Notes: generated from the letters alone by a model not told the origin. Positions 4,570 through 62,433 are shown, numbered from the stretch's first letter. The stretch is DNA of 64,000 bases from an uncultured virus (IMG/VR IMGVR_UViG_3300018475_001996) (IMGVR_UViG_3300018475_001996:62001-126000); one strand, 5' to 3'. Translations and numbers: made by a program.

Positions 4570-4687
4570 ATTGGTTCCTTTTGTTTATGCATATAATATA
4601 GTAAAAATATTCATATTTGTCAACCTAAAAAATAAAAGGCTGACTTGCGTTAACCTTTTACCCTCACACATCCAATATTCTTTTTTC

Positions 4688-9935: not shown

Positions 9936-11053
9936 TAGAACACATATCCTTCACGAGATTTACCGGTTGTAACATTACGCAAGATAGTCGGAATAATTTC
10001 ACCAGCCTTCGTAATAATAACTTCATGACCGATTTCGATGCCCATATATTCAAGCATGTCAATATTGCACATATTTGCACGCTGAACTGTAGTTCCGCAA
10101 AGTTCAACAGGTTCAACTACTGCAACCGGAGTCAAATTGCCATTCTTGATAGACCATTCAATGTTAATGAGCTTGGTCTGAGCAAGAGAATACTTCGGCT
10201 TGAGTGCAATCGAGAATTCCGGCAAATAATTGGTTTCAAGATCTTCATAATCAATCAAAGACGTCTTCCAAACAAGACCGTCAATCTGATAATCACGTTC
10301 TTCATGCCAAATCTGGTCCATAAGAGCGACAGCCTTTTCACCGTTCATGGTTTTAAGGTCGTAAATCTTGTAGTCAACAACATCAAAACCCTGGTTTTTC
10401 ATCCAATCAAGCATATCAGACTGAAGTCGGAAATGACGCTTGGTGTTAGAGGCATAGCGAGCTTCATAAACCTTGATATTAAGCTTTTCACAATCTGCAC
10501 CGTCGAGATGCTTCATAATACCAGAAGCAGCATTTCGGCAGTTCTTATACTTCGGGAAATACTTTTCCTTAACGGACTTGTAAAGCAAAATTTCGCCGCG
10601 AATAGTTCCTGTAAAATCCTTATCGACTTTCTTGACGAGACCATTCATCTTAAGAATATTATTGGTAATGTCGTCACCGTATGTACCATCACCACGGGTA
10701 GTACCCTGAACGAACTTTCCATCGACGTATTTAAGCGCAATAGAGCAGCCATCGAGCTTCAAAGGAGCAACGACATATTCATGACCATTCATACGGCACT
10801 TATTGAACCAGACATCCATTTCTGGAGCCGTATTGGCCTTATTCTGAGAACCCATGATAATATCATGCTTGACTTTTTCAAAACCTTCAGTATGGTCCTT
10901 ACCAACTTCCTTCAAAACATCAGAATCAGGATATTTAGTCTTCAGTTCATCCCAGAGTGCATCAAATTCAATGTCGCTCATGATAGGAGAATCGGAATTA
11001 TAATAGGCATCTTGTGCCTGACGGATTTTTGCTTCAAGTTCGTTCTTATTCAT
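9935..11053 (-). CDS. ligA: NAD+-dependent DNA ligase, minimal (Ia, adenylation and OB domains)
   Basis: AYYNSDSPIMSDIEFDAL, KLDG, TRGDGTYGDDIT, IRGEI, NCRNAASG, DGLVWK, IALKP, TPVAVVEPV, KAGEIIP; ends after the OB fold. Confidence 0.93.
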   Translation of the reverse strand: MNKNELEAKIRQAQDAYYNSDSPIMSDIEFDALWDELKTKYPDSDVLKEVGKDHTEGFEKVKHDIIMGSQNKANTAPEMDVWFNKCRMNGHEYVVAPLKLDGCSIALKYVDGKFVQGTTRGDGTYGDDITNNILKMNGLVKKVDKDFTGTIRGEILLYKSVKEKYFPKYKNCRNAASGIMKHLDGADCEKLNIKVYEARYASNTKRHFRLQSDMLDWMKNQGFDVVDYKIYDLKTMNGEKAVALMDQIWHEERDYQIDGLVWKTSLIDYEDLETNYLPEFSIALKPKYSLAQTKLINIEWSIKNGNLTPVAVVEPVELCGTTVQRANMCNIDMLEYMGIEIGHEVIITKAGEIIPTILRNVTTGKSREGYVF

Positions 11054-19963: not shown

Positions 19964-21061
19964 TTAAAGGATTTCAAAATACGGTGCATATTTTTCCATG
20001 ACTTCAATAACCTTCTTGTAATCAATCTTATTAAGATTCTTCGGAAGGTCCATACCGCCCTTGTTAATCAAATCGCCACAATTTGCAAAATAAAGAAGCT
20101 TCTTTTCTTCACGACAAATTGTTTCCTGCTGAATTACAAGATTAAATTCCTTCTTAGGAAGATACTTCTTGAAATTGGAAATATACTTCGTATAAACAGA
20201 CTTCAATTCTTCAGCATGTTCAGGATCCGTAGTTGCAGAAAGCATCAAAATACCGTTATTGACATATTCAATTACTCCAGCACGAGACTGATATGCAAGA
20301 CCACGCTTTTCTCGAATTTCATGATAAAGCGGAGAAGTCAACTTACCGTTAAGCATTTCAAGGGCAATGACTACATACGGATAATCCTTCTTGGAAACCG
20401 GCTTCTTACAGATTGCAAAAACAGTTTCTTTTTCAGGAGCCGGAACAGGCATCAAGCTAACCTTATAATCCTTCTTCCAACGAAGCTTTGTTGTAATTTC
20501 AGGCATCTTGGTCAAGAACTTAACCTTTACGCCAGTTGTCTGGCGAGGGCCGACTTCAACAATACGAACAGGTTTGAAAAGTTCCTTAAAAAGCTTCTTA
20601 GCGTCTGCAAGAGTAAAATTCATAATATCTTCAGTCTTGCCAAGAACGAAATCGTTATTGAAATGTTGACGAAGCAGGTTATGAAGCTTACCTTCTACAG
20701 GACGGTTAAATGCATCCAAAATTTCCTGGTAAACAATCTTTTGTTCTTTTTCGAAAACTTCCTTTGTGACATAAGTATCGAAACCGGTAGTAACACGTTC
20801 AATAAGCAACTTCTTCCATTCCGGAGTAAGATACTTATCCATGCCAGTAAAATGAACTACGAGCAAATCTGTGCTTGTATAGGCATTAAAATCGATGTTA
20901 TATTTCTGAAAGTCATCAAATTGGTCTTGAATAGTATTCGTAATCAAGTGTTCCATCAAATGATGACAACCATGCTGACCATCTTTTTCATAACTAGAAC
21001 CTGCCTGGAATACGATATACAAGCCAGTCTTCTTAAAAGATTTCTTCTTATAGATATACAT
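19964..21061 (-). CDS. M16 family (inverzincin) zinc peptidase
   Basis: HLMEH, FNAYTS, EKEQKIVYQEI, SPLYHEIREKRGLAY. Confidence 0.92.
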   Translation of the reverse strand: MYIYKKKSFKKTGLYIVFQAGSSYEKDGQHGCHHLMEHLITNTIQDQFDDFQKYNIDFNAYTSTDLLVVHFTGMDKYLTPEWKKLLIERVTTGFDTYVTKEVFEKEQKIVYQEILDAFNRPVEGKLHNLLRQHFNNDFVLGKTEDIMNFTLADAKKLFKELFKPVRIVEVGPRQTTGVKVKFLTKMPEITTKLRWKKDYKVSLMPVPAPEKETVFAICKKPVSKKDYPYVVIALEMLNGKLTSPLYHEIREKRGLAYQSRAGVIEYVNNGILMLSATTDPEHAEELKSVYTKYISNFKKYLPKKEFNLVIQQETICREEKKLLYFANCGDLINKGGMDLPKNLNKIDYKKVIEVMEKYAPYFEIL

Positions 21062-21070
21062 TGTTTTTCC

Positions 21071-21565
21071 TTATATTTTTTCAACCGTTACGCCATTTCG
21101 TTCAAGGAACTGAATTCCTTTAGACCCACGGTCATATTTGTTTACGTACATGACATTCTTGATACCTGCGGCATAAATAAGTCTTGCACACGATTCACAA
21201 GGTTCATGAGAAATAACCATAGAAGCACCGGTTATATTCATTGTCCATTTCAAAGCATAGCCGAGACAGCTTTGCTCTGCATGGATTTCTTGTTCATTTG
21301 CGAATTCATGATGTTTAGCTCTCCATTCCATTTCTGGAACTTCCTTCCACTCTTCTTCCTTATTATCTCGCAGATAAAACTTTCCGTTTTCAGATTTGAA
21401 AATTTCGTTACAGTTAATTTGTCCTGCTGGAGTACCATTGTAGCCACATGAAATAATACGGCCTTTTTCAACGAGCAATGCTGCAACTTTCATCCTAGAG
21501 CATTTACTAAGAGCTTGATATTCCTTAAGAACTGTTTTATAAAGATGTTTATATTTTAATTCCAT
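21071..21565 (-). CDS. dCMP deaminase
   Basis: GYNGTPAG, HAEQ, HEPCESCARLI. Confidence 0.93.
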   Translation of the reverse strand: MELKYKHLYKTVLKEYQALSKCSRMKVAALLVEKGRIISCGYNGTPAGQINCNEIFKSENGKFYLRDNKEEEWKEVPEMEWRAKHHEFANEQEIHAEQSCLGYALKWTMNITGASMVISHEPCESCARLIYAAGIKNVMYVNKYDRGSKGIQFLERNGVTVEKI

Positions 21566-22074
21566 AAAATAGTCCTCTTCGTAGAAAGAGTTTTAGAATA
21601 GTTTTTAATTTCAGAAAGATAGATTCTTACGAGTTGACTTTTATCCTTTATGATATTTCCATAATCATCTTCATGACTTCCTTGAAATACTTGGCCACTC
21701 ATAATTTTCATGTCAATTAAGCTAGAAATATATCCGCAATTCGGCATATATAATTCTGGCGAACCTTTATAAGCCAAAATTGATGGGATCTTTCTAAATT
21801 TGTTAACTGCATTTGTTGATTCGCCAGCGCGATTTCGAACCGTAATAGTAAGATACGATTCTGCAAATTCTCCTTGTGCAGTTTTAATTTGAACAGGAAA
21901 AGTGTTTGCCGTAAGTTTATTTACAACTACAGCATCTATTCCAGCTATATCCGCTTTTGACTTATTTTCCATTTGGACAATAGTAAAATATTTGTTATAA
22001 AGTAAATTCAAATTTTGTATAATAGATGCCTCATCGGCTAATCCATTAGCACGACCCTTATTGGTATTACCCAT
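21556..22074 (-). CDS. PD-(D/E)xK nuclease-like protein
   Basis: ADIAGIDAVV...FPVQIKT; start at MGNTNK after a GAGGA SD. Confidence 0.6.
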   Translation of the reverse strand: MGNTNKGRANGLADEASIIQNLNLLYNKYFTIVQMENKSKADIAGIDAVVVNKLTANTFPVQIKTAQGEFAESYLTITVRNRAGESTNAVNKFRKIPSILAYKGSPELYMPNCGYISSLIDMKIMSGQVFQGSHEDDYGNIIKDKSQLVRIYLSEIKNYSKTLSTKRTILWN

Positions 22075-28343: not shown

Positions 28344-29495
28344 TTAGGCTACATTGTCTCGTTTTACGAAAATGGTAAATCCAAGGAAACCAATAAAATA
28401 GAGAAGTGCCAAAACAAGATATAAAGTATTGTCAGTAAACAAGTTTCCAAGAATAGGTCCCGCAATTCCAGCAAATCCCCAGGCACTAAGCGTCATAGAG
28501 TGAACTGTAGAAAGACAACTATCTCCGAATCTCTTAGCAAGTAAACTTGGCAAACAACTGAATCCTCCGCCGTAGTTCCATTCAATCATCAAAATACCAG
28601 CTACAAGCAAAATCGGATTTTGTGTATAACACAAAAACGCACCAAGAATACCCAAACTTGCAACCCAATGATAAGCAGCCTTTCTACCAATCGAATCACT
28701 AGCCGTACTCATTCCAAATCGACCACCGACATTTGCAACAGCTGTAGCAGCCATAAGTGAAGCGATAGCAGTATATCCAGCATTTAAAAACAGGCTCTTT
28801 TCCTGAGAAATAAGTGCAAGGCCGCATGTAATGTTGATAAAGAACATAAACCAAATCGAAATATATTCTTTAGTCAAAAATTTGGCCTTTATAAGAGTCT
28901 TATACGGAATAGCAGTATATTTTGTAGAAATATATGCAGGATTAGGTTTATATAGCCATGAAGAGAAACTCATTACAACTAAGAAAATCAATCCCATGAG
29001 TAAGAATACAACTGGCAACGTAAAGGTTGCAAGCAAATACTCAATCATAGGAGCCGCAACGAACTTTCCCAATCCGAAACCGGTAATAGCCAATCCGGAA
29101 GCGAGTCCTTTATGATTACTGAAGTTTGCAAGCAGCTGTTTAATTGGTGCCGTATAGCCTATGCCGGTACCGCAACCCATAAATGAACAGCCGATATAAT
29201 AAAGTGGTAAAAATCCAGTATAGGTTGCAAACGAAAGTAGCAATAATCCTATTGCAAACAGAATTGTTGAAACTATCGCCATTCGTTTCGGGAACATTTC
29301 AACGAATCTTCCGAAAACCGCAGCACCCATGCCAAGGAAGAAAATAATCAGAGTAAATCCAATATCAGCTGAGAATTTCGAAATATCAAAAGTCTCCATG
29401 ATATTCTTGGCATATTGTGAATAGTTATAAACTGAACCTAAACTGACAGGTAACAAAATACCCGGAATTAAAATATTGAGAAATCTATTTGTCAT
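28344..29495 (-). CDS. MFS transporter, OFA (oxalate:formate antiporter/YhjX-like) family
   Basis: About 12 TM helices; LGSVY, GIGYTAPI, HKGLASGLAITGFGLG, GGRFGMSTASDSIGRK, YGGGFSCLP, LSAWGFAGIAGP. Confidence 0.9.
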   Translation of the reverse strand: MTNRFLNILIPGILLPVSLGSVYNYSQYAKNIMETFDISKFSADIGFTLIIFFLGMGAAVFGRFVEMFPKRMAIVSTILFAIGLLLLSFATYTGFLPLYYIGCSFMGCGTGIGYTAPIKQLLANFSNHKGLASGLAITGFGLGKFVAAPMIEYLLATFTLPVVFLLMGLIFLVVMSFSSWLYKPNPAYISTKYTAIPYKTLIKAKFLTKEYISIWFMFFINITCGLALISQEKSLFLNAGYTAIASLMAATAVANVGGRFGMSTASDSIGRKAAYHWVASLGILGAFLCYTQNPILLVAGILMIEWNYGGGFSCLPSLLAKRFGDSCLSTVHSMTLSAWGFAGIAGPILGNLFTDNTLYLVLALLYFIGFLGFTIFVKRDNVA

Positions 29496-32289: not shown

Positions 32290-35020
32290 CTATCGTGATG
32301 CATAGCTTTCAGACCAGTCTTCTTTTTCGATAGCATGCATTTTTGCATATGAATCTTTACTGTCACCTTCAAATTTAGCCAAATCACTTAGTAAATCACA
32401 GTTATGCATAATTGCTTTTGCGGTACATTCCTTAAATCTTCTAACATCATCACTGTTTTTAATTGAAAGTATGGCATTCAAGTTATAGAAAAAACAATCC
32501 ATATCTTCTTTATCTGAATTTACTCTAATAGTCTGACATGTATGATAAAAACCTTTTGTTTTTCCAATAGAATATATACAATTTTTTATAATGTTTGCTC
32601 TGGCAGAATTTTTATTTACAAACATTTTTCCAAGTTCATAAGTATCAAAACTATATTCTAGTTCATAAAATCTATATTCATATCTATATGTTTTAGGGTC
32701 ATTTTTCAAATGATATTTTCCAACTCTTTTATTATATCTTGCACGTATATTTAAAATAACATCATTATCCGAATGTTTTATATTGAAAATGATGGTAGAA
32801 TATGGTATAATATCTGTAACTTCTTCAGGTTCAATTATAGAACCATTATATGTTACTGGTGCTTTATTAAATGCCGAAACATCATAACCGCATACTTCAA
32901 TACCATATTTTTCAAACAGTTTAATAATCTGAAAAATTTCACCTTTTCTAGCTGTTATTTCTTTCTTTGTCTGTTTGATTTTATCAATAACTTTATTATA
33001 CTGCTTGATGGGTTTATCAAGAAGTTTGTTAATATCGTTTCCAATTTTAATATCTAAATCTTTCATAATCAACCAGGCAAAACATCAAATGTTTGTTCAA
33101 CAGCATGCATTTTTAAACGTAAATCGATTTTATAAAAATCAACCTCTCCATCATAGATAGCTTTCAAAAAGATTTTAAGATCTTCTCTTTCCATCTTATT
33201 AAACCAGAACATATGCATATCATCGTTCGGTTTATTTCCATTATGGATTGACATAGCGCTACTGTGAAGTTTTACGCACAACTGATGTCCTGGTAAATGA
33301 TAATAAACCGAATGATAACCCTTTATAAATCCAAAAGTTTTCAAAAATGCATCCATAATATCACGTATATGGTCAGCAAACGCTGGAGCTTCATCCAGAC
33401 ATTGCATAAAATACGCAAGTTTCATCTCTTTTGGCATATCTGCAAAATTTGAAAGTTTAAATTTCATATTATTCGAGTTTGTTAATTGATTTTAACATCA
33501 ATAAGTTTTGTTTTGCTGCCTTACATGTAAAATCTCTGTATCTGATAAAATCATCTTCAGTAGTTATTTCGGTTAATGCATCAATTAGCATAAAGAATGT
33601 ATCTACCTTTTCTGGTTCGGTATCGGCAAAAATCTGAATGAACGGTGTTTCATTAGTAGCCCTAGCGTAATGATATTTTATTGTATCTTTCTTAGCTACA
33701 TATCCGCCTTTATGACGAATAGACAAATATAGACGACCATTTAATTCTTCTTTTTTAGAAGCAGAAACATTATAATTTAAAACTACAGAATGTGTATTTT
33801 CTTTACGAATATGAATTGCTGCAAACTTATTATCATTAACTGCATCAATAGATGGTTCTATTACTTCATGGTATATAATTTTATATCCTCTTGAAGTAAT
33901 CATATTTTCAAGAATTTCTGCATCTTCTTTATTTTTCTCATATATAGAACGAAACCGGTTAATAGCCCGGTCGCGTAAATTATTATAATATTCTTTTATA
34001 CGCTCAATATTGTCGTCTACTATATTTGAAAATTTACACATATATTACCCAGGTAATTTGTCGATTGCTTCTTTCACTTCGGCTTCTTTAATTGCTAAAC
34101 AATACTTTCTGTAATATTCTAAAAAGTCTTCTTTAGATTCGTCATCTACATAATGCATTATAACCGCTGGAAGAAGAGTCATTTCATCACTGCAAATTTT
34201 AAAACTCTGCTCAAGATTTATTATCTCCAGCAATGTACAAAAATTATTAGTCTTTGCAGATTCAATAGCTGCATTTTCCGGCGCAGTTACAACAATATTT
34301 CCATCAATGTAAAATTTTACTAATTCTTTATAAAGATTACTAACTTCACATGTAATAACTTTGCATTTGGCAAAATTTAAACACGTGTATTTATTAGTAC
34401 CAGGTGAAGAATGTAGTAACAGCATATTAATCCAGCTTTTCAATGCATTTCAATGTTTCCATATCTTGACGTGCCATATAGCATACGCCAGTTCTGTAAC
34501 GTTCTGAATTCTGGTTTTTACGTACTTCTTCCAATTCGTTGAGCAAATTGAAGAAAATATCCTTCAATTCTTTCGGGCTGTCGACACGTACATGACAACG
34601 AGGACGTGCATTCATAGCGCTAATCATAACATTTCGCTGTGCTTCCCAATCATCGCTATATGCATTGTTGTACATGGTATCGTCGAATGTCGCACGCATA
34701 GTTACATAGTAACGGCCGGTTTTCTTCTTGTTGTTACTGGCCATATCGATATGGTGCTTAATTCCGTCTTTTCCCTTTTGAACAATAAACGGAACACGGT
34801 TTGATTCAAAATTGAAAACAGAAAAACCGATAATGGAATATCCATATTCAGCAAACATGGTTTCAAAATGCTTAAGCTGATTTTCATAGATCTCTTGGAG
34901 TTCTATGCTTCTACGACGCTTGGAGTCGATAGCATGCTTAATATGCTCGATTTGTTCAAGCATTTTGTTTTCGTCTTTTGTAACTGCGGCATTTACTGCT
35001 TCTAAGAAATTTTTATACAT
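32290..35020 (-). CDS. five early hypothetical proteins (32290-33072, 33069-33467, 33469-34041, 34045-34443, 34427-35020), three of them paralogous
   Basis: Shared G(K/R)(Y/L)(H/Y)...(I/V)(R/F)(V/A)(N/D)(S/T)..E..D.FF motif; ends such as EAIDKLPG and KCIEKLD. Confidence 0.7.
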
Positions 35021-39498: not shown

Positions 39499-39903
39499 TT
39501 AAAGGGTATTTCTAAATGTTAACATTTCTGGAGAATTATACATTTCGTCAAATTTCTTGGTAAGTTCTACACACTTCATGAAACTTGTCGTGTTATTTGT
39601 AATAATATCACGGAAATCCATGTAATATTCATCAAGAGTAGTCTTATAGTTCTTGCTGAGCTTGAACATATCCAGAACTGCTGCATTCTTAAATTCCTTC
39701 TTGAGCTGCTTGATAGTTGCCGGAGTCAAAGTCTTGATATAGCGTTCAACACAGTCAACTGCAACCTTAAGAACAACATCAGCCTTAATTTCTTTCTTAT
39801 CGGCACAAGTGATAAGACGTGGGCTAATGAGAGTGTAAATCAATGGATTGTTTTCCATCGAACTAAACTCTGCAGATTCATTCATTAAGTAGTCTCTTAA
39901 CAT
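39499..39903 (-). CDS. hypothetical protein
   Basis: ORF track. Confidence 0.65.
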   Translation of the reverse strand: MLRDYLMNESAEFSSMENNPLIYTLISPRLITCADKKEIKADVVLKVAVDCVERYIKTLTPATIKQLKKEFKNAAVLDMFKLSKNYKTTLDEYYMDFRDIITNNTTSFMKCVELTKKFDEMYNSPEMLTFRNTL

Positions 39904-40250
39904 ATTATTTTTCCCTTCGAACTCTTATATTGGTATTTTGCCGCAATGCTAGCAAGCGACAAAGCCATTTGATTCAATGTTTCCTTGATGTCTTTAATAT
40001 CAGCCTTAACTGTGGATGTTTCATCTTTCAAATACGAAATATCCTTTTGCATCAATTCTTTTTCAATTTCTAACTTATTAATTTTATCTTTGTACTTGTC
40101 ATCAAGTGCCTGGATTTGAGACTCTCTCGAAGCACTTGTAGACTTACGTTGGAAGTAAATAACCAAATACACAAATGCACAACAAAAAATAGTAACCACT
40201 ATAGCCAATGCGTTTCCTGAATCAATAATTTTTAAAACCAAATTCTCCAT
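39897..40250 (-). CDS. single-TM coiled-coil protein (holin-like)
   Basis: TM helix followed by heptads. Confidence 0.5.
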   Translation of the reverse strand: MENLVLKIIDSGNALAIVVTIFCCAFVYLVIYFQRKSTSASRESQIQALDDKYKDKINKLEIEKELMQKDISYLKDETSTVKADIKDIKETLNQMALSLASIAAKYQYKSSKGKIIC

Positions 40251-46610: not shown

Positions 46611-48630
46611 ATGGATATTATTTTGGTGAATAAAAAATATGGTTACGAATCAAAGATCCCGTTTCCGTTAGTAGAACCGGTTAGACTTTGGGAAAACACT
46701 GCAATGATTTTAAACGGCGGTAAAAAGAACTATAGTATATGGGCATCGGATTTTGAAGATTTGAACCTTATTCTTCCAAATAATACAAAATTAGTTCTTA
46801 AAGATTTTAAAAATGTAAAGGAACTATATGATTATATAGTTCCTATCCTAAACAACGAAGAAAACAAATTTGTACTTGAAAACTATATTTAAAGTTCGTC
46901 AAGCTTATTCATGGTTTTTGCGAATTCAAGATTATCCTTTATAATATCGTGAAAACCAGAAACACTGTCATTAAATTCGTAATCATTTATTCCGTATTTC
47001 AATTTAAGTTCTTTATAATCATTTTTCGTTTTATCGGTTAACACGAATATCATAAATTGACTGGTAAGATAAAAACGATTATTTAATAGTAAAATTTCAC
47101 GTCCACTTACTTGTAATATCTCATTGACGTTTTCTTCATTGACAGCAAGTGCCTGAAAATAAACCGTAGGCTTATCTTTATATGAATACGTAATATATGG
47201 AACTTCTGAAATTACGTTCGTAATGTCAACGGCCGTTTTACCATTGACTACTGCTGTACTAACACGATGTTTATGAAATTTTAAACCCATTTTAAAGCTT
47301 CTCGATAGCATTATTAGTTCTAAATTTTTCGACAGCGACGGTAAACTTATCATAATTTTCCTTATTATAAAGGTCCCCGTATTTTGTACCATTCAGAATA
47401 ACACAATCATTCTTGTTCTTGGTTATCATATACCACGATTTGGTATTATTCATTTGGTCTACTTTAATTTGAATAACACCACCTTTTACGATTAAACTCG
47501 TAATATCGGTGAATTCCACACGTTTTTGTGAATAACGACCCGTACTTATAAATAGTTCATTTTTCATATTATATAATATAACAAACTTAATCCAGTTTGT
47601 CAATAGCTTTTTCTACGTTATATTTTTCAATATACGGCGAAATCAGGTCTATAAATTCATGTATAGGTTTTGTTTTGTCAAAATGTATGCTAATATCATT
47701 ATACATGAAATAGGCTTCAGCTTCTATATCGTTTGGGTCTATCATAATAGATATTCTTTGATGAGTAAATTCATCTTCATAACAACAGCCCAAATAACCG
47801 TCTGCGTCATTAGCATATATCAATTCTCCGACACTCCACATAACCCGGTGGTTTCTATTAATCATACGTAATTTTATAGTAGGCGGTCTCTGCATACTCA
47901 TAATATAGTAATTCAGTTCTTATTTGTAAACCCGTTGACGGTTTTAAAATATTTTGCTATATTATTAGCATGACAAAACCTAAGATTTTAATCTATCATT
48001 TTTCGTATGACCCAGAAGAGTTCGATATTGATAGGTTTAATGATTTCGTTATCAGAGAGAATTTGTCAACGGGTACAGCTTTAGCTGTACCGTTGACTTC
48101 TCCAAAATTACGTAGTATTAGGAACAGAATTGCATTTATTCCGCAAAGTCATTTTAATCATAAAGATGTATATTTTATGATAGATGACGTAAAATATGAG
48201 TTTCCCGGTAAACCGCTTCATGAAATTTATAAAACAATGTCAGAAGCAATATATGAAAAAATAGTAGAATATAAGCTTTCGGTGTTAAATGGCTAATATA
48301 GTAGCGTTTAGATATACAGAAAAATACAAGCCACTTTTAGGTGGTAAAGAAATCCCAGTAAGTCAAATGAATTTCAATGACGAAATTCATGCATATTCCA
48401 ATTTATATAAAGGATATACAACAGTCGCTTTTTGCGGTATAAAGAAATGGGCCGAGGCTGAATATACTCTTTATTATTATGTCAAATGGTTTGCTACTGA
48501 AGAGATAAGATTGAGCTGGGACGATAATTGCTATGTCATTTATGATGGTGTCAAATATACTACTGTAGAAAAACTGTATGCCGCGATAGAAAATAAGAAA
48601 AATCTAGCAATACTTGATACTTACCTATAA
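46611..48630. CDS. six small C-terminal-helix family proteins (+46611-46892, -46889-47290, -47292-47567, -47587-47895, +47970-48296, +48289-48630)
   Basis: Ends include NNAIEKL, VEKAIDKLD, MNKLDEL, LAILDTYL; divergent early promoters at 47902-47963. Confidence 0.75.
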
Positions 48631-48708
48631 AAAATGACGGACCGCCAGATCCGTCATGAATTATCATATTGTTGAAACGTGTTCGACAAAGAACCAATAT
48701 GATAAAAT

Positions 48709-49221
48709 TTAAATTGCGTCAGTACCAGAACGATTTTCGATAATCTTGAAGATTGCTTCAAGCTTCGGTTTTAAAGTTTCCTCTGCCTCGTCGAAATCTT
48801 CAGCCATATACGGAATCATTTCCTTGATGGCTTCTGTAACTTTAGCACGGATAGAATCCTCTTTTTCTATAACTTCTGTTTCGCCCCAACCTGGGTCATA
48901 GGTTCCGAAATCACGTCCATCCCAGCTTGGTTCTTCGCCAGTATAGCGAACTTCGACTTCGATTGAATTACCGTCACCGCCTGTAGAATCATACTGCTCA
49001 TCGAAATCCTTAACAAAACCAGGAAGGATCTCTTCGATTTTGGCGACTTCTTCCTTTGTAACGCCCAAGCGACAAGTCAAATCAAAAGACTTCTTAAGCG
49101 GATTACCATGATAATCCAGCAATTTATCAATATAGATAGGAACTTTTACTGTGTCATCATTATAATGTTCACAGACATATCCGTTATTTTCCAAAATAAT
49201 CAAAGATTCGCTTACTTTCAT
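48709..49221 (-). CDS. acidic late protein
   Basis: TATAAATA 49239-49246; begins MKVSESLIILENNGY. Confidence 0.7.
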   Translation of the reverse strand: MKVSESLIILENNGYVCEHYNDDTVKVPIYIDKLLDYHGNPLKKSFDLTCRLGVTKEEVAKIEEILPGFVKDFDEQYDSTGGDGNSIEVEVRYTGEEPSWDGRDFGTYDPGWGETEVIEKEDSIRAKVTEAIKEMIPYMAEDFDEAEETLKPKLEAIFKIIENRSGTDAI

Positions 49222-49285
49222 TATAACCTCATTTTTATTATTTATAGCATTGACGAAAAGTGAATCTCTTGCTATATTTAGTAAC

Positions 49286-49864
49286 ATGACACGAAATACG
49301 CAAAATACAATTTCAACTATCTGGATTTTTCTTGCATCATTCGTATTTACCTTTATGGTAGGCTGGATTGTTTATGAAATGATTGAAAAATCTCCAGATA
49401 TTGATTATACGAAGAGTTATAGTGTCGAAGAAGTACAGAAGCTTGTTGATGAAAAAGTTACTAATGTAACCTGTGGAGTAATCAATAATGAAATTCTGTG
49501 TATCTATACTAATCACAAAACTTCTCGTAATCCGGTATTTTGTACTGTTAAATGGAATGGTAAATAAAGGAAAATCATGGTACCTCTCAAATATACAATC
49601 GGAATTCTGGCAATTTATGTAGCCTTGTTCATAATTCTTGGTTTTATAAGTCTGCCGACACTTTTATTGGTGTTAGGTATAATGTTCGTTATTTCGACAA
49701 TTATCTATGTTGTCATACTCATTGAAGAAAGGATTTGGACATATTCGCTTATCTGGGACAATCTTATTGGATATGCCGCAATGGCCTACGGTATCGTATT
49801 CTTCCTTCTTCCGATTATCGTCCTTAATTGCATCGAAGACAGAATAGAACGTAACGAAAGATGA
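49286..49864 (+). CDS. two small membrane proteins (49286-49567, 49577-49864)
   Basis: TM segments; early promoter 49250-49278. Confidence 0.7.
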
Positions 49865-49865
49865 T

Positions 49866-52800
49866 ATGATTAATGTTATTTTTACAAATGACGGATATAC
49901 ACAACAACATGATGTTGCTGAAATTGATAACGTCAATATAGACGAACATCCTAGTTTTGTAGAAGCATGTGAGCAAAAAGACATCGTTAATAATACCATG
50001 ATAACTCTTACATGGAGATCTTCAGATTATCATGGATTATATGTTTTAAAGCTTGGAACATTTCCGCTTTATAAGGCATATTTAGAAATTGACGGAAAGA
50101 AATATATGTATACCGACATAATGAAAAATATTGAAAAATTCAAAGCCAGGATTGAACAGGAAAAAGTTAAACTTGCATTGGAGACATTAGCATGATTAAG
50201 TTTACACTTGATGGTAGAAACTATGAAATCGAATCCATGCAAGATTTTTCTCTTTGGGTTCATTACGAATCAAAACATAGAAAACGAGAAAACTATATTA
50301 AAGCAGAAGTACGTCCTGTAGGTTATGAAGCACATCATGTTTTTGAACTGAGAAACGAAGATAGTATACAGATTGACGATAAAAAGTTTGACCTTCCATA
50401 TATTTGTGAACATTTTGATTTGATTAAATCTAAAATTTTACATAATCTTGAACTTAAATGCCTGGATAATTTAGCATGATTAAACTTATTAGAGAATATC
50501 ATTATTCGCGTTCAGATGACCATTATGTAGTAAAGCAACTGTTTGGTTTTGAAAAATCTAGTAATGGCATAAGTCTTTTCTTTGAAGACCAAATGGGAAA
50601 AAACCAAATGATAAATACAGCCGATACAGAAAAAACAGAAACAAAACTGTATATAAACGACATTCTTTATACAAACAAAGATATTATGTGGAAATTTGAT
50701 AAAATTTCTGCACTGTTAACTCAAGATATAAATTTGACAGCTATTGAGTCTCTTCCATAGAGGAATATATGGATTTTGAAAAAATAAAGAAAAATGAATG
50801 TTTTTCGAAACAGATGATTCTGGATAATCCAAATCAGCCATATATTTTTAGATATGATAAATGGGATAATTATGACCTGATTATACCAATAGAAACCAAT
50901 GATTCTACTACCCATATACTTGGTGCGGTTTTCCATTATGAAGATGAAAATACATATTTATACAACGGTTGTTCTTATATAAATCTTCTCGGTGTAAATC
51001 TTAAGAGTATGAAATTGTTTACTCCGCAAAAAGAAATCGAATATGATGCATCTGTTGATGATTATCATGATTTTAGAGATAAAGTTATTATGGTGTTAAA
51101 TCAATTCGAATCCATAGAGGCCGTGGATAGATTATGAAGTTCATTGTAAAAATCGGTAATAATATAGCCATAACATATGAGATGATAGCTCTCGAAGGCA
51201 TATTTATCGAAAGGCCGAGTACTAAATTTACAAATTCACAACAGGACATGATTGATTACAAAACAATCTATATCCATTTTCATTATTCAAAGAGAAACAA
51301 CCGCGAAGTACATGCCAATATAACTATGCCTATTGGTGAATTTCTTGACGGTAATAAAATGATGTATATAGATGCTGGAAAAGAACAGATTTATTACAAA
51401 GATATTGTTGCAAATCCGGCAAAAGCAGCAGTCAGGATAAATAACCTCATTTTACTTGATACTATCGAGGCTTTGCCATAACAGTATTACTATGTTAATA
51501 GAGCTTTATCCAAATAAAAAATATAGAGTGCCATCTAAAATTAAGCACGTCAATAAAATTGTTGCCGAAAAAACGGAACCTCTTTCATTTATTGATTTTA
51601 TAGATACAGATGATAAACCGCATATCATGGTTATCGGTACAGAATCTATAATAGTAGTTGACTATGGACCGGTTGAATTACCTTTAATATTTAGTTATAA
51701 AGATATATTAGAAAATCCGGAAGCTATTACAGCAAAACTACATAATTTAGAAAACGAAGCTGTACTTGACAGATTATAGCCATTGACAAAAATGAGATTT
51801 TTTGCTATATTAAAACCATGATTAGACTTATCATGGAATCAAAACCTCATGAACAATGGGAACAGCATAGGCAGTTTAAAGTAAAATCTGCCGTTCTTAT
51901 TAAGCAAAAAACTCATAGTCAATATGAGTCGGATTTGATTGTCCAATATACGTCGTTTAATAATAGTTCTTATAATAGTTATGGATTTGAAGCTCAATTT
52001 GAAAAAGAAACGCATAGATTATTGCTTGAAATCGGCGGCGAAGTTTACGGGCATGATGATTTGATTAAAAACGTCGATAAGTATAATGCATTGCTGGAAA
52101 ACGAAGCTATAAAAGAAGCAATAGACAGATTATGATTCGAATAATATACAGACAATATAATGAAAAAACCAAGAAATGGGAAATGAATTTAGCATTTCCC
52201 GTTTATCAAGCGGAATTGTCTGTTAATACTAATAAATTAATCGATATTAAATATAAAAATTATTACGGTCATGATTTCTTAACAACATTCAAGAATTCTA
52301 ATGATACACAGATGACGCTTGAATTTGATGATGAAGAATATAGTATTCTTGATATGATTAATAATTTTGATAAAGTAAAGTCAAAAGTTTATAACGAATA
52401 CCTACATGATATTTTGGAAGCATTATGATTAAAGTTGTCAGAAAAATGACATATGATAATGAACCCACGACCACGACATTTTATGTTCTTGGTCCTTATG
52501 TTTTTCGTACAGTAGTAAGTTCTAGACAATATATTTGTTTAGGCTATACTGATATTAAAAGAGAAATTAAAGAGCCGTATGAACATAAACCAAATTATTT
52601 TATTTTAGGAATTGTTACCAATTCCTCAGGTAAAAATTATAATACATGGCTTGAAACAGACGCTGGCACGTTTACTGACCAATATATAGATAAACATCTG
52701 GATAAAGTCAACGCTATATTGACTCAGGAATCCAACAAAGAAATTCTTGATTGCCTACCATGATTAGTGTGACCCAATATAAGAAAGATAATACGTTCCA

Positions 52801-54671
52801 TTCAAAAGTGGATTTGCCGACCTATACTAATAAAAATTGGAATCCTTATTTAAGTAATAATCCGTATCATCAATATAGGCTTTATATAGCATATGTTTCG
52901 CCAGTAGGTAGACTTGAATCCGTATATCTGGATCCTCGAAGTATATTAAGAATCGGCGACCAAACATATGATTTTAATTATATGCAAAAAAATATGGACC
53001 GTATCAATACGTTGATAGAACAGGAAATAACTCGAGAAGCTATAGAGAAACTGCCATGATTAAACTTGCTATTTATCATTTAGACGAAGGTATAGACGCT
53101 AAAATAATAGAATGGGGAGAAATACAAGAAATCGGTTATGGCGATTTTTATTTTTGTTATAGAGTGAATAATGGAAATCATCCGCAATATATCTATTTAA
53201 CAAATACTGAACATAGATATGTTTCAGTTTTTATTAACGAAAAAGAATATATTATTACAAATCCTCACAGCCCATCTGGACCCACAATTAGCCGACTTTT
53301 AAAAATTAAAGATAAAATTAATGCTTTAATAGTACAAGAAAATATTAAAACTGCAATCGATTCTTTGCCGGGGTAATAATGGTTGAAATTATAACAAAAC
53401 GACATACCAATTCAAAAGATTATATCAATCGTAAAGTTTCTGGGCTTTATTTAACTGCTAGAGATGAATATTCAGATGGCCAAATAGATAAAATGAACGG
53501 TATCGTAGTAACTGCAACATTTAAATATGTTGATAATGACCAAAAGAGTTATTCATGGATTCTTGGGCATTTTAAATATTGGACAGGTACAGCAATTCAT
53601 AATTATACTAATTATATTAAAGTAGGTAAACTAAGTTTTTGGTATAAAGATATAATTGAAAATGTTGATAGAATCAATGCACTCATTCAGCAAGAATATT
53701 TAAAAGACGCATTGGAGAAATTATAATGAGCGAAAACTTGATATACATGGAATATATGGGAAGTCAACATGTATTTGTTCCAGATAATGAAATAGTTAAG
53801 TGTATTGAAAAGAGTTCTGACATTACGGATATATATTTGCCTGGAAAATTTTATAATTTATCTAATAACAAAAAGTGGTTAGTTTATGACCCTCTTTTAA
53901 TAGGTACTGAGCTATATTTAAATATATGGCGTGATTGGACATACCATGACGGTTCATTTGAAATAAAATTTGTTCATAAATCGGCAGATGATGATGACCT
54001 GTATGCTAAAATTAGAGATGCTAACAAAAAAGAATTTCTTATCTGCATTAACAAACTGTATATTCATTATAAGAATAAAGAAACTTTGGATATTATAGAA
54101 AAACTACCATGATTGTACTTTACGACGGTTTTACAAGATTACGTGCTCGAAATGTAACTGTTACGGCATTACATGATAATGCGCCGGATCCAAGATATTT
54201 TTATAAAGTTGATTTTTATGACATAGGAAATCTTCATAAAGATTCTTTTACTATTTCCATTTATGACGCTGATGCATATATTCAAATTAATAATACCAAA
54301 TATACTTATTGTGACTTGGAACATGATTTATCCAATATACAAGTAGAATTGGAAAAAGAAAATATTTTACATGCGATTGAGAATTTACCATGATTAAAGT
54401 TTATCATAAAGGTAATAAAATATCAATTTCTGAAATTACTAAGTTTGAAAAGTATCTTGAGGTTGATACTGGTAAATATTATTTTGAAGTTAAATATTTT
54501 CCTGAACGTTCGTATGTACAGTCGAGCTGTATTTTTTCAGAATCTAAACAGTTTAACTATATTGAAATTAACAGAGAACGATTTAACTATAAAAAGATGC
54601 TTGCACATTTTGAAAAAGTAAAAGCACTTATAGAACAAGAAAAAATCGTAAAAGCTATTGATGCATTATAA
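49866..54671 (+). CDS. tandem array of 15 small (93-128 aa) divergent paralogs with a conserved C-terminal helix
   Basis: Mostly ATGA-coupled; MI(K/R) starts; ends such as ALIEQEKIVKAIDAL, TLIEQEITREAIEKLP, ALLENEAIKEAIDRL. Confidence 0.85.
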
Positions 54672-54729
54672 GGGTTGACAATTACTTTATCGTTTACTAT
54701 ATTAACGGTATAAACAAAAAGGAACAATC

Positions 54730-55173
54730 ATGTTTAAAGTAATTTATACCAAGGCTGTTGATGGAAACGGACGTTATGCATATGTCGGTGGCGACAAGAT
54801 GACATATGAATATGCGGACGTACCTGATGAAGAAACTTTCCAAAAGCTTAAGAACGAAATTGTCGAAGAACTTAAGAAGGAAGATTCCCCGCTTGTAAAG
54901 GCTTCGTTCTATAACGAAAAGGGAGTTCCTTTTGAAATCAGTTTCGACGATATTAACGAAGAAGATGAATATTGTCTCATCGATACTGTCAATAACATGA
55001 CGCTTAAGAAGCTTGAAGAACGTACCGACGGTATGACCAAGGGACAATGGGAACTGTTTAACGGTTCTTATGACGATAACCTTAAGATTCCGGAAGATCT
55101 TGCCGAAGCGGATGAAAATTCTGACCCGCTTTATGATTATCTTAAGAGCGTTGGACCGACACTTTTGAAGTAA
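54730..55173 (+). CDS. acidic early protein with its own promoter
   Basis: TTGACA 54675-54680 and TATATT 54698-54703; AAGGA SD; not a family member. Confidence 0.8.
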   Translation: MFKVIYTKAVDGNGRYAYVGGDKMTYEYADVPDEETFQKLKNEIVEELKKEDSPLVKASFYNEKGVPFEISFDDINEEDEYCLIDTVNNMTLKKLEERTDGMTKGQWELFNGSYDDNLKIPEDLAEADENSDPLYDYLKSVGPTLLK

Positions 55174-55185
55174 GGAGAAACTACC

Positions 55186-55772
55186 ATGATTCATGTATAT
55201 GACAACTGTAAACTATATACCAATGTTATAAATCCAAAGCTGGAATATGTTACAGACAGTATCTGGCCGCCTTATAATCCCTATTTCTGGATAACTTTCA
55301 AGGAAAGCCCTAATGCACAATTTAATAGGGTAGACTTCCGAGATTTCACTGAGGAAATGAATAACAATTATATCGAAATCAATAACCAGCGATTCAAATA
55401 TAAAGATATAAAAGAAAACCTGGAATATATCCAAGCCCTAATCGAAAACGATATTAACCAGGAAGCTATCGAGTCCCTCCCATGATTGAAGTCTACGATA
55501 CAAATAATAAAAAATCAGAAGTAATAGAAGTCATAAGGCTGGATAAACTGACTGACAAATGCGTTAAACCTCCCTATGTCTATTTTTCTCTAATGTATAA
55601 AGACTCTTCTAACCAGAAGGGCTTTACTATATTCTCTATAGGCAGTTCTGAAAATTACCTGTCTATTAACGGAAGAAAATTCAAATATAAAGATATGATA
55701 GAAAAAGAGGGCCTCATAGACGCCCTCCTTACCCAAGAAGAAACCCTTGAAACACTAAATAAGCTACCCTAG
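55186..55772 (+). CDS. two further array paralogs (55186-55485, 55482-55772)
   Basis: YIEINNQRFKYKDI...ALIENDINQEAIESLP; YLSINGRKFKYKDM...LETLNKLP. Confidence 0.8.
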
Positions 55773-57470
55773 AGCTTCTTTAGGGCCCTTTCTATATCAT
55801 ACTTGTTAAATATACTATAGGCATTTTCGGGGTGCCTTATGGCCTTCTTCATGATTGCCATGGGTATGTTCTTAAACTGGAACGCCAACATCTCATTAGT
55901 AGTCCCGATACAGACAGCCTGCTCTTCTTCTATATTCCGAAAATATACGGTAGGGGTAGAATCATAAATGTACAGACATACCGAAAATCCGTCCTTCCGG
56001 TAATCTACAGGATAGGGCTCGTATGTGCTCATAGGGACATATCCACATCTAACCACCAAATCGCGAACCTTCTTAAGCGGATCCATTATCCCAATACCTC
56101 CAAAGCCTTTTCTGTCTCATATTTGTGAAAATCAAAAGTCAGCCTCTTGAATTCCTCAGGGTCGTCTATACATACATTGGTTTCGATATACCCCCTGTAC
56201 ATCTTCCCGTTCCAGATAATAAACTCGTAATCGGTAATATAGTAAAGCCCCTCCCATACGTCTTCGAAAATTTCGTGGACATATGTGAATCCTACGGCTC
56301 GCCTTTCCAAATCAATATCGGTAATATCTACAAATTCCCTAACGGCATTCTTGGAATGATAATGCGGGGTAATAAAATAGTTTTTACCGGGTTCGATTAA
56401 ACTCAATAAATATTCCAGTTTTTCCTTATGACTACTACTCTGAATATTCGACCAATGTTCGTATTCGCTATCCGTCATTATCCCAATACCTCCAATGTCT
56501 TCTCGACACAATAGTTGTTCAGTTCTTCCAGCATCTTCCGACCATCCTGGCAGGCCGAAATTATCAGAAGTCCGGGCGGAATAGCCTTGAACCTGTAATG
56601 CAGGGCCTTGTTCGTACATGCAATAGAATCGCTCGCCCCTACCATCGGCGAACTCCCGTACTGCAAGAATATATGGTCATTCCAGAACGTAATGAAATAA
56701 TCGCGTTCATCCCCAGTCTTCCGGATATATCTAACATACGTACTTGTAGAAACCGACTCGCTGTCATACACCGAATACCCATGAGAAAGCAAATACTCTT
56801 CGTACTTGCGTAATTCAAACTTCGTCACCCCAGAACCTCCAGGTTTCTATTAAGGTCATATTCGTATAGCTTCTTGTGTATTTCTGAACTTTCTTCACAC
56901 GCAATCTTCAACAATATGTCCGCAGGAACATTATATCTGTAATATATCCCGCCGCTTCCGTCATTATAGGCCAGGCCACCCTTGTTATAATACAAGAATA
57001 TGTTATTCTCGAATATCAACAGAGTATACTTGTTATCCGATTCTTTCACATAAAGGACATCGGTATTACGGTCTACCTCCCTATATCCGTGTTTCTTCAA
57101 AAATCGTCATAATACCCGTACTGTATCAAAAAATCGTCATAGGCGCTGTACTCTTTCATCCCAGAACCTCCAAAGTCTTATTGACATCGTACTCGTACAG
57201 TTTCCTCCTAATATCCTCCGCAGGACCTACAGCTATATCCATCAATATATCAGCGGGAACGCCCATATATCTGTAAATAGTCCCTGTACCGTCGGACACG
57301 CGGGAAGTAGCTATTCCCTCGCATTCATTAACGGACTCGTCATATATCAGACATACAAACGTAGTAAGAATTATCAGACTGTACTTCCCCCGGATATAAC
57401 TGCACCTTAAATCCTGCTTATACCCGTTCTCCAACGCCATCCTGATATATTTCTGAGAATCGAACTTCAT
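55769..57470 (-). CDS. five small proteins ending Y...(K/R).LEVLG or ALKKL (55769-56086, 56086-56478, 56478-56828, 56825-57159 frameshifted, 57156-57470)
   Basis: Coupled ORFs; four share Y/F-(R/Q)-(Y/F)...P...(L/M)..(I/A) before the terminal helix. Confidence 0.8.
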
Positions 57471-57682
57471 CCAGCAATCTCTTCTTTTAACTTCGCCGGA
57501 CTAAGCGTCCAGTTAGACAACTTGACACCGTTATATTCCGCGATATGCTTCATTTTTCTTTCGCTGTAATCCCCGCAGACAAACATCCATCTGGCCTTAT
57601 TGGCTAGAATCTGCGCCTGCCTGTCACTTATTTCTTCTTCGGTCTCAATCGTAAACGGGAGATAAACTACCTTTTCAGCCAT
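57467..57682 (-). CDS. hypothetical early protein
   Basis: Promoter TTGACG-N17-TATATT at 57709-57737; GAGGA SD. Confidence 0.7.
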   Translation of the reverse strand: MAEKVVYLPFTIETEEEISDRQAQILANKARWMFVCGDYSERKMKHIAEYNGVKLSNWTLSPAKLKEEIAG

Positions 57683-58056
57683 ATATTGTCCTCTGGTTCG
57701 TTATTTCAAATATAGCAAATCCATATAGGTTCGTCAACCTTAATTAACCCTTGCATATACTATAAACCGATATATATTAACATCATATTAACATAGAATC
57801 AATTAAGCCAAAAATATCCCAGAAATACCTATATAATCATAGGGGTAAAATCTATTAAGCAAAATCTCCCAAATCCCTTTATTTTCAAGCATTTCGGCCA
57901 ATTCTGAATATTCTTTAAATATCCAGAATATACCCCAAAATCTATTAAGATTTTCACAAGAAATTTCTACACAATTTACTAACATTTTATTAACAGGCGA
58001 GCCCATCGAGACGTAAGTGTTTTTTAACCAATCCGGACCCATATATAGGAATCTAT

Positions 58057-61402: not shown

Positions 61403-61696
61403 TTAGTGCTTCTTTGCTCTGCGTTCGGCTCTGTTCCTTGGGCGTAATTGTACGTCACCAACCTCTCTATCGGGCTTAGGGAACAGGCACGGGCACGGAA
61501 CCGGTTCACCGGAATCAGCGTGCCTACCGAGGTAACCCCTGCCATGACACTTTTTGCAGTTAGGCTTGGGGTCATTTAATAGAATGCCCATTGCTTCTGC
61601 GGCTCTGCGGATAACCTTCATCGCATTAACGTTATGAAGATCTTCTTCCGGGGCTCGCTTATCAGGAGGTACAAGAGACTGATAATCAATAGACAT
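61403..61696 (-). CDS. small Zn-ribbon protein
   Basis: CKKCHGRG...PCPC. Confidence 0.7.
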   Translation of the reverse strand: MSIDYQSLVPPDKRAPEEDLHNVNAMKVIRRAAEAMGILLNDPKPNCKKCHGRGYLGRHADSGEPVPCPCLFPKPDREVGDVQLRPRNRAERRAKKH

Positions 61697-62433
61697 TACT
61701 TTTTCCTCGACCAGTAGATGTTAAGTTTAATATCGTCTTCGCGGAGCTGCTCGAACTTCATGAGACCACGCTTGGCCACTGTGATGTTGTAAGCTGCAGA
61801 CGGAAGAGTGTTAATACCACGAATAGGAACCATGAAATCAAACGGGATTTCAACATCGTTCTTAAGGTCATACTGTGCACTGTAGGTATCGCCGCTGAAC
61901 ATACTTGTCAGGTTGGCCGTGCAGGTCTTACCTTCGAAATGGAACTGGATGGTATCTGCCTTGATGAGGGAAACCATCGAGCTGAGATCGTTTACGTCTG
62001 ATTCGGAGAAATAGAGTTCTGCATCGGCTGCCGGCATGTTAATCTGGTTGAACTGCGGCTTGGAGAGAACTTCAGGCATACCGAGCTTGTTGACGAAATG
62101 GCGGGCATCGATACTGGAAGCGATGTTCAAGATATAGGGCTCGCCGGATTCATTAACGTCGATACTGAGCTTTGGCGTATTTGAGACAGCAGGATCCTTG
62201 GACGGTTTATCGAAAATATCAAAATACTTCTTGAAAGTAGAGAAGTTGAAGAAACCAATCTTTTCACCCGGGAAATCGAAATACGAGAGCGGAGCCGTGA
62301 GGGTGAAGCAGACATTGAGCTTGTCATCGTTGGCACGCATCTTGAATACTTCACCATCCTTTTCCATAACCAGCTGTTGCTGAATATTTGAAAGCTGGGA
62401 AATCAAGTTAATAAGGTTTTTATTATAATTCAT
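61696..62433 (-). CDS. sliding clamp (T4 gp45-like)
   Basis: 245 aa; LSNIQQQL, FPGEKIGFFNFSTF, LPSAAYNITVAKRGLMKF; upstream of the clamp loader. Confidence 0.78.
   Translation of the reverse strand: MNYNKNLINLISQLSNIQQQLVMEKDGEVFKMRANDDKLNVCFTLTAPLSYFDFPGEKIGFFNFSTFKKYFDIFDKPSKDPAVSNTPKLSIDVNESGEPYILNIASSIDARHFVNKLGMPEVLSKPQFNQINMPAADAELYFSESDVNDLSSMVSLIKADTIQFHFEGKTCTANLTSMFSGDTYSAQYDLKNDVEIPFDFMVPIRGINTLPSAAYNITVAKRGLMKFEQLREDDIKLNIYWSRKK

Follow-up and report, generated by a model that had tools for sequence, protein, structure and literature searches.

The window analysed here is a stretch of 64,000 nucleotides that corresponds to bases 62001-126000 of a 136,626-base virus record (IMG/VR IMGVR_UViG_3300018475_001996). 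At positions 46611-57470, counted from the first base of the window, lies an array of 27 small open reading frames (ORFs) of 91-130 amino acids (aa), spread over both strands within 10.9 kilobases (kb), whose products share a conserved C-terminal end. An earlier note on this DNA had drawn attention to the array; its placement of the genes on both strands is borne out, whereas its count of 28 ORFs comes down to 27. A near-identical record of 411,059 bases, 98% complete by CheckV, carries the same cluster, and the virus is therefore a jumbo phage (>200 kb). A profile built from all 27 proteins matched exactly these 27 in the 136.6-kb record at E<=10, all of them inside the cluster, and the same 27 together with six weak matches elsewhere in the 411,059-base record. 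Two types can be told apart, which agrees with the two tail-bearing body families distinguished in the earlier note, although their tails resemble each other weakly. Type 1 comprises 22 genes, at 46611-48630 on both strands and at 49866-55772 on the plus strand, with proteins that typically start with M-I-K-V-Y and end with ..N-P-E-K-I-x-A-L-I-E-Q-E-..-A-I-E-x-L-P. Type 2 comprises five minus-strand genes (55769-57470), whose proteins have a starting helix followed by G-Y and end with ..Y-E-Y-D-..-K-x-L-E-V-L-G. The proteins are mostly acidic, with an isoelectric point below 6 in 19 of the 27.

The tail was scored over the last 25 residues with a leave-one-out hidden Markov model (HMM), using the C-termini of 474 other ORFs of at least 60 aa in the 136.6-kb record as background. 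The family median is 9.2 bits against a background 99th percentile of 6.3 bits, and only the tails of the genes beginning at 47970, 50769 and 51134 fall below that percentile, leaving 24 of 27 above it. Scores of type 2 tails are not independent, because other type 2 tails remained in the training set. The common C-terminal tail that had been proposed is thus recovered in most members, but the conserved part is about 45 residues long and not 16. In type 1 these roughly 45 C-terminal residues read y-I-E-I-N-G-K-K-Y-x-Y-K-D-I-x-x-N-P-E-K-I-x-A-L-I-E-Q-E-..-A-I-E-x-L-P. Among 146 distinct type 1 sequences, numbered as in the product of 55186-55485, information is high at positions 62-99 and 1-5, and the alternating hydrophobic positions 11, 14, 19, 34, 36, 38, 49 and 51 are also conserved.

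Outside the array, the two top-scoring ORFs of the background set end in the same kind of tail, one in the window at 34045-34443 (minus strand) and one at 39662-39988 (minus strand) of the full record. The former encodes 132 aa, ends in ..EAEVKEAIDKLPG and scores 9.1 and 16.4 bits with the tail HMMs, and its tail alone aligns to the family profile. Tail-like ends also close dispersed ORFs of 100-130 aa that lie in the record outside the window, at 10556-10906, 21532-21840 and the already mentioned 39662-39988, all on the minus strand. Together with 34045-34443 these ORFs score 13.9-20.3 bits with the type 1 tail HMM and are marginal with the whole-family profile. Eight further small ORFs with family-like ends are found at six distant loci of the 411-kb record (L013-L018). 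Among the distant ORFs of that record is one for a 174-aa protein of which the last 38 residues alone match the profile (27.8 bits). No longer protein with the module was found among 8,000 scored candidates, which is weak evidence.

The relationship between the bodies was examined after cutting the C-terminal 39 residues, excluding sequences with a BLAST hit to the tested body and comparing each real body with 100 shuffles. In 11 of the 22 type 1 members the real body beats at least 95 of the 100 shuffles on the body-only profile, and in six of the 22 it beats all 100. Pairwise comparison of the bodies by phmmer returned three directed hits, which link 55186, 55482 and 54390. Judged by these profile scores, type 1 bodies are very divergent, yet recognisably one family for at least half of the members. 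The two types are further apart. Aligned by hhalign, they match over their last 25 columns with a probability of 17% and an E value of 1.4e-3; type 2 proteins reach 0-4 bits with the type 1 HMM, and type 2 tails score a median of 3.8 bits on the type 1 tail HMM, for which the background 95th and 99th percentiles are 3.0 and 9.1 bits. Both tails nevertheless hold, at similar spacing, an (N/D/G)-P-(E/A) cap and the ending ..(I/L)-E-x-L-(P/G). Type 2 would then be a distant branch in which the first hairpin was replaced by a helix, with a weak link in sequence.

The left sub-cluster contains five type 1 genes. The first (46611-46892, plus strand, 93 aa) belongs to the family by alignment and has a leave-one-out tail score of 7.5 bits and a body not detectably like the others. 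On the minus strand follow 47292-47603 (tail 8.4 bits) and 47587-47901 (104 aa, 8.5 bits, with an 84% identical relative, P0092). The listed TTG start of 47292-47603 coincides with the -35 box of a promoter, which makes an internal ATG near 47567 the probable true start. The remaining two are on the plus strand, namely 47970-48296 (108 aa), with a weak tail of 5.8 bits that lies under the background 99th percentile, and 48289-48630 (113 aa, 10.4 bits).

The main plus-strand array begins with a set of six type 1 genes, 49866-50195 (109 aa), 50192-50479 (95 aa), 50476-50760 (94 aa), 50769-51137 (122 aa), 51134-51481 (115 aa) and 51492-51779 (95 aa). The first of these was assigned by the tail HMM and the body-profile test, the second by the tail HMM and with an ATGA overlap, and the third by a tail of 15.6 bits and a body score reached by 0 of 100 shuffles. 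The member at 50769 is divergent, placed by alignment, and carries an insertion (tail 1.9 bits in the ungapped test), and 51134-51481 rests on alignment and the body-profile test. The sixth gene, with a tail of 10.9 bits, is the last of its operon and is counted from the ATG at 51492, the ORF listing having a TTG at 51456. A second operon (51818-54671) holds nine type 1 genes, all with support from the tail HMM or alignment: 51818-52135 (105 aa, the first gene past the promoter at 51783), 52132-52428 (98 aa), 52425-52763 (112 aa), 52760-53059 (99 aa from the ATG at 52760, placed by alignment, 15.8 bits), 53056-53376 (106 aa, 15.5 bits), 53379-53726 (115 aa, 17.6 bits), 53726-54112 (128 aa, with a long body, 9.3 bits), 54109-54393 (94 aa) and, as its last gene, 54390-54671 (93 aa). 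The plus-strand array closes with 55186-55485 (99 aa), which was modelled, and 55482-55772 (96 aa, also found by the tail HMM). The body scores of 52132-52428, 54390-54671 and 55482-55772 were likewise reached by 0 of 100 shuffles.

On the minus strand, the type 2 genes are 57156-57470 (104 aa), which was modelled, 56825-57100 (91 aa) and 56478-56828 (116 aa), both assigned by sequence comparison, 56086-56478 (about 130 aa from an internal Met, the start seen in relatives; 56086-56619 in the ORF listing) and 55769-56086 (105 aa, ending in ..ERALKKL), which is linked to 56478 by phmmer. The gap between two of these genes (57099-57158) holds two tandem 30-nt repeats that are 77% identical. Genes that do not belong to the family lie within the array at 48709-49287 (minus), 49250-49864 (plus) and 54730-55173 (plus). 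Among the interspersed non-family products, two are acidic, measure 192 and 147 aa and lack the tail, and two are small and hydrophobic, with predicted membrane helices.

A single class of promoter-like motif stands at the heads of these operons. Allowing at most one mismatch, TTGAC-N15-TGNTATATT has 13 sites in the window, where 0.23 +/- 0.51 are expected, and six of the 13 lie at 47575-57737, heading operons. Sites of the class TTGAC(A/G)-N15-TGNTATATT include those at 4595, 11061, 13017, 13722, 17312, 35027, 47935, 49250, 51783 and 57709, and an extended form, TTGACGAAAGTC, is common to several copies. Within the array, the motif scan places them at 47575-47603 (minus, 0 mismatches), 47935-47963 (plus, also DNA repeat D5), 49250-49278 (plus, heading the operon that ends at 51779), 51783-51811 (plus, heading 51818-54671), 54675-54703 (plus, one mismatch, heading 54730-55772) and 57709-57737 (minus, heading the type 2 operon); the sites at 49250 and 51783 also appear among the repeats. 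A generic sigma-70 scan, with 81 sites against 65.9 +/- 8.7 in shuffles, was uninformative. The T4-type late motif TATAAATA occurs 18 times in the window (10.1 +/- 3.1 expected) and mostly precedes minus-strand genes left of 46.6 kb. Its position just upstream of many of these genes marks the block 7906-46606 as late. No sense-strand copy of TATAAATA lies inside 49866-57470, where the sole copy is antisense. These motifs support coupled operons with early-type transcription. The idea that most of the genes follow early-type promoters is upheld in that six sites of one class head operons; a separate promoter for most of the genes is not supported.

Translational coupling leaves its own marks on the ends of the genes. 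Overlaps by ATGA are seen at 10 of the 17 plus-strand junctions. The codons for I/L-E frequently contribute a GAG or GGAG 7-9 nt ahead of the following ATG, and a final CCA-TGA supplies both the proline and the next ATG. Coupling may shape the last few residues, and at the position that overlaps the Shine-Dalgarno sequence E and D interchange.

AlphaFold2 gave confident models for one member of each type. For type 1 (55186-55485, 53-sequence alignment) the mean predicted local distance difference test score (pLDDT) is 93.7 and the predicted template modelling score (pTM) 0.83; DSSP assigns strands at 2-6, 9-11, 15-22, 33-39, 47-51, 62-65 and 68-70 and helices at 72-77 and 79-96. For type 2 (57156-57470, 55-sequence alignment) the values are 84.5 and 0.78, with a helix at 5-14, strands at 24-27, 30-34, 39-44, 56-59 and 64-68, and helices at 73-80 and 84-103. 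Both models finish with a hairpin, a short helix and a long helix, and the pLDDT of the last blocks is 97/97/91 in type 1 and 93/87/79 in type 2. The tail is thus probably the long last helix of one compact domain and not a free docking peptide. The earlier note had proposed a modular system of variable heads with a common docking tail, and this part of it is not supported: the helix lies inside a compact, confidently predicted domain in two models, core positions are conserved throughout type 1, and 11 of the 22 type 1 bodies are detectably related. As far as these predictions go, a strict docking-tail model fails the fold test. The same note had named, as an outcome that would speak against it, bodies of one known fold with the helix as its last element; the helix is indeed the last fold element in both models, but the fold is not clearly a known one.

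Comparison with solved structures gave distant likenesses. Foldseek found nothing at E<=1e-3 for type 1 in the PDB or BFVD, and nothing at that threshold for type 2 in the PDB. In a Foldseek-independent search, PH, PTB, EVH1, FERM-C, Tfb1 and Pob3 domains fill nearly all top rows for type 1, with a best Z of 4.1 (3qwm_A and 1h10_A; root-mean-square deviation (rmsd) 3.1-3.4 A over 71-78 aligned residues), and all 48,161 chains searched stay below Z 5. For type 2 the top rows hold the C-terminal domain of T4 MotA, a coronavirus SUD domain, type III secretion chaperones, YbjN and HicA, all at Z <=4.7; the best are 5jlt_A (Z 4.7, rmsd 3.6 A, 83 aligned) and SycT, SycH and SicP (Z 3.4-3.8). Such Z values show at most a common arrangement of the modelled elements. 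A search of the family profile against PDB sequences gave nothing better than E 0.21, and the ESM Atlas gave no usable hit for type 1 and, for type 2, unnamed clusters alone with scores <=0.83, in the chance range.

Searches of family databases agree with the suggestion that the family is undescribed. Pfam matched 0 of 30 family and neighbour ORFs, one neighbour being weak and below the cut-off. PHROGs returned three hits only (E 0.004-0.009), nothing usable, and PADLOC and NCBIfam gave isolated single-member hits among 53 proteins scanned, without a family match. No match was found by tblastn of one member against 50,697 phage records, nor were loci found with two divergent members in IMG/VR. 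A description of the family was not found in the titles and abstracts on jumbo-phage paralogs among the matches listed. A profile search of 1,835,955,588 representative sequences recovered 100 proteins at E<=1e-3, 31 of them at E<=1e-10, all of 61-128 aa. When these and two more were compared with the 53 aligned sequences, 41 of the 102 had a match of 70% identity or more among them and 61 fell short of it, and the tail is kept in all. For type 2, 95 relatives were found at E<=0.01, none of them named. The stretch occurs in public runs of animal faeces or gut metagenomes, and the family does not extend beyond a single clade of jumbo phages from animal guts.

One relative (L012) is a 14-kb contig whose clamp-loader small subunit is 90% identical to that of the window. 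The clamp-loader gene is directly adjoined there by at least 31 type 1 genes, all on one strand, and the array locus is without type 2 genes. Two other ORFs are embedded in this array. A 258-aa His_biosynth (HisA/HisF-type) gene at 5341-6117 (Pfam E 1.4e-28) stands mid-array and is absent from the array of the window. A 119-aa ORF at 10328-10687 bears a hydrophobic, membrane-like helix at its N-terminus and ends like a family member (..ERNIETEYIIEKLP), but does not match the family profile.

Comparison of the two arrays reveals how the proteins change. Eight syntenic array orthologs are 32-58% identical, and their non-synonymous divergence (dN) of 0.36-0.64 compares with 0.05-0.06 in three flanking core genes. 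The ratio of non-synonymous to synonymous rates (omega) is 0.19-0.40 in the array orthologs whose synonymous divergence (dS) is unsaturated, and 0.08-0.10 in the flanking core genes. Array proteins thus change about ten times faster than their core neighbours, under purifying selection. For the two ortholog pairs with the least divergence, omega is 0.00-0.04 over the last 45 codons, at a dS of 0.15-0.25, and 0.15-0.64 over the bodies. The last 45 residues surpass the body in conservation in 15 of 19 ortholog pairs. That selection acts on the tail at the protein level, as had been argued before, is supported by these ratios, by the E/D interchange and by conservation that extends beyond the ribosome-binding site. 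One gene stands apart, since 55186-55485 and its counterpart in the relative (10684-10980) have a dS of 0.11 against 0.55-0.61 in the flanking core genes, which suggests a recent exchange or transfer of a single array gene.

Within the genome, paralogs are on average 20-23% identical, with a maximum of 37-41%. Neighbours are slightly more similar than non-neighbours in the window (0.227 against 0.203, a difference reached by 13 of 2000 permutations), an effect that is absent in the relative, and DNA repeats are limited to gene junctions, where they are 66-77% identical. Because repeats are restricted to junctions and neighbours are barely more alike, the duplications must be old. Recent tandem duplication as the source of the array was rejected on the same grounds.

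Our preferred explanation, to which we give a probability of about 0.65, is that the array is a lineage-specific multigene family of single-domain proteins in which the tail is the structural, most constrained last helix; the proteins may act early as host-directed binders. The 22 type 1 and five type 2 genes would encode single-domain proteins of about 100 aa, in which the last helix, together with the preceding beta-hairpin and short helix, would form the most constrained part of the fold, while loops and much of the sheet would have diverged almost past recognition. The genes would be old duplicates, retained under purifying selection in spite of fast protein change, and sigma-70-like promoters would drive their translationally coupled operons early in infection. 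The products would be cytoplasmic, each with a variable surface that may bind a different host or competitor target, and such binding would serve host takeover or counter-defence on one stable scaffold. The binder part of this explanation is drawn from the stable scaffold, the fast-changing surface, the early operons, the many old copies that were kept and the mostly acidic nature of the proteins. What is retained of the earlier proposal is a large and diversified set of early-type small proteins.

Several observations weigh against this explanation. On or just before the helix, seven polar positions are conserved (N78, E/D80, K/R81, E87, Q/N88, E/D89 and E/D96), which is more than packing needs. 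Without the C-terminal module, the remaining 11 of the 22 type 1 bodies, among them the five from 46611-48630, show no detectable likeness to the others, and the only sequence link between type 1 and type 2 is the weak alignment of their tails. The models cover two of the 27 members, so that one fold for the others rests on alignment, and the placement of the helix within the domain was judged by pLDDT and pTM as stand-ins for burial. Function, early timing and cytoplasmic location are what we infer from features of the kind listed above. Contigs from metatranscriptome libraries (four runs in three studies) cover 25-28 of 30 bins, a figure that shows neither transcription nor strand nor level, in which uncovered bins carry no weight and to which DNA carry-over may contribute.

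Among the other possible explanations, the conserved polar residues speak for two-faced adaptors, in which the helix would sit in the fold while its polar face engages one hub shared by all members, of phage or host origin, and the variable loops take up different cargos or targets. These residues are present on the helix and its N-cap besides the hydrophobic stripe, the constraint on the tail exceeds that on the body in close pairs, and similar tails close dispersed small ORFs with other bodies, one of which, at 10328-10687 of the relative, has an N-terminal membrane helix. We nonetheless regard such adaptors as unlikely, as the helix is modelled inside a compact domain, no longer module-bearing proteins turned up in the candidates scored, the dispersed tails are marginal with the whole-family profile, and the hub partner is purely hypothetical. 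An extension of the idea, similarly doubtful, is that the array is a repertoire of two-faced adaptors on an unseen beta-sandwich-plus-helix scaffold, a germline 'binder library' directed at the defence or metabolic proteins of many host strains. The helix might instead be an element of homo- or hetero-oligomerisation, through which paralogs would associate in mixed dimers or larger assemblies. The same helix recurs in all copies, and its hydrophobic positions fall on more than one stripe (79/82/86/90/94 and 84/91/95/98). This helical wheel was read without coordinates, however, and the monomer models are already compact and confident, so that we think oligomerisation improbable too, and a little more so.

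Variable bodies with one conserved end could also be explained by a targeting or processing signal for capsid packaging, export or degradation, and the record does encode an M16-type peptidase. Such a signal is very unlikely, given that the promoters are early-type and the core array lacks sense late-promoter motifs, that the conserved part is a folded module of 45 residues and not a short linear peptide, and that the N-termini are not signal-peptide-like. Least credible of all is conservation at the DNA level only, through the ribosome-binding site and overlapping start of the next gene. The ATGA junctions, the GAG or GGAG spacing and the CCA-TGA endings described above favour it, but they explain at most the last two to five residues. 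A ribosome-binding site cannot explain the tail, because about 45 codons upstream are conserved, E and D alternate at the GAG, and the genes ending at 51779, 54671 and 55772, which have no coupled successor, keep the tail, as the earlier note had observed. Additionally, the tail gathers synonymous but not non-synonymous substitutions, and this explanation is largely refuted.

The genomic surroundings are those of a phage with T4-type replication genes and varied cargo. Among the products encoded in the window are T4-type clamp-loader subunits, RNase H/FEN, an NAD-dependent ligase, a flotillin and an M16 peptidase, and a clamp-like protein is encoded at 61696-62433. No clamp loader of the 50,697 deposited phages exceeds 38% identity to the one found here, from which we conclude that the phage has no cultured close relative, and megablast of 49800-56100 against the same number of phage records gave no match. 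The cargo, which was considered unusual, includes a cytidylyltransferase-like/NUDIX fusion (1425-2543) and a patatin-like phospholipase (7008-7877), as well as the SPFH/flotillin protein (13784-15424), the M16 peptidase (19964-21061) and an MFS transporter (28344-29495).

Expanded families of uncharacterised small proteins take up a sizeable share of jumbo-phage genomes. The present family stands out by confident predicted folds without a clear solved relative, by 27 to more than 30 copies per genome, by protein evolution about ten times that of core neighbours under purifying selection, and by a clear layout of promoter-headed, coupled operons. Should the copies prove to be target-specific binders, they would yield new inhibitors of defence or housekeeping proteins of gut bacteria and offer a case study of phage genome growth. 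For the present, the array has the status of a well-documented new family and not of a new kind of system.

Known domains and systems offer partial parallels. In a PH-like beta-sandwich with a C-terminal helix the elements follow one another as in the type 1 model, seven strands and then a long amphipathic helix, but the match is weak (Z <=4.1), an additional short helix precedes the long one in the model, and the sequences are not similar. Type 2 likewise resembles the 'double-wing' C-terminal domain of MotA, type III secretion chaperones and the YbjN-like fold in its helix, antiparallel sheet and C-terminal helices, though every one of these matches has Z <5 and lacks sequence similarity. 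The internal proteins of phage T4 share a capsid-targeting sequence, which is N-terminal, about ten residues long and cleaved. The concept of very different proteins with one short conserved end is alike, whereas the conserved end described here is C-terminal, spans about 45 residues, is predicted to be folded and belongs to genes with early-type promoters.

The closest parallel in genome organisation comes from other jumbo phages. Phage G and 121Q hold tandem arrays of more than 30 genes, which are called 'very similar' (Hua et al. 2017, PMC5646251), and an expansion of about 35 zinc-ribbon copies is described for phage G (Iyer et al. 2021, PMC7824862). The arrays of phage G and 121Q resemble ours in having tens of small clustered paralogs with no known function, in a genome above 200 kb and within one lineage. 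They differ in that the sequence family and predicted fold are unrelated, and in that the copies here are old and at most 37-41% identical. Tandem arrays of paralogs in jumbo phages are already in print, and the family itself is new.

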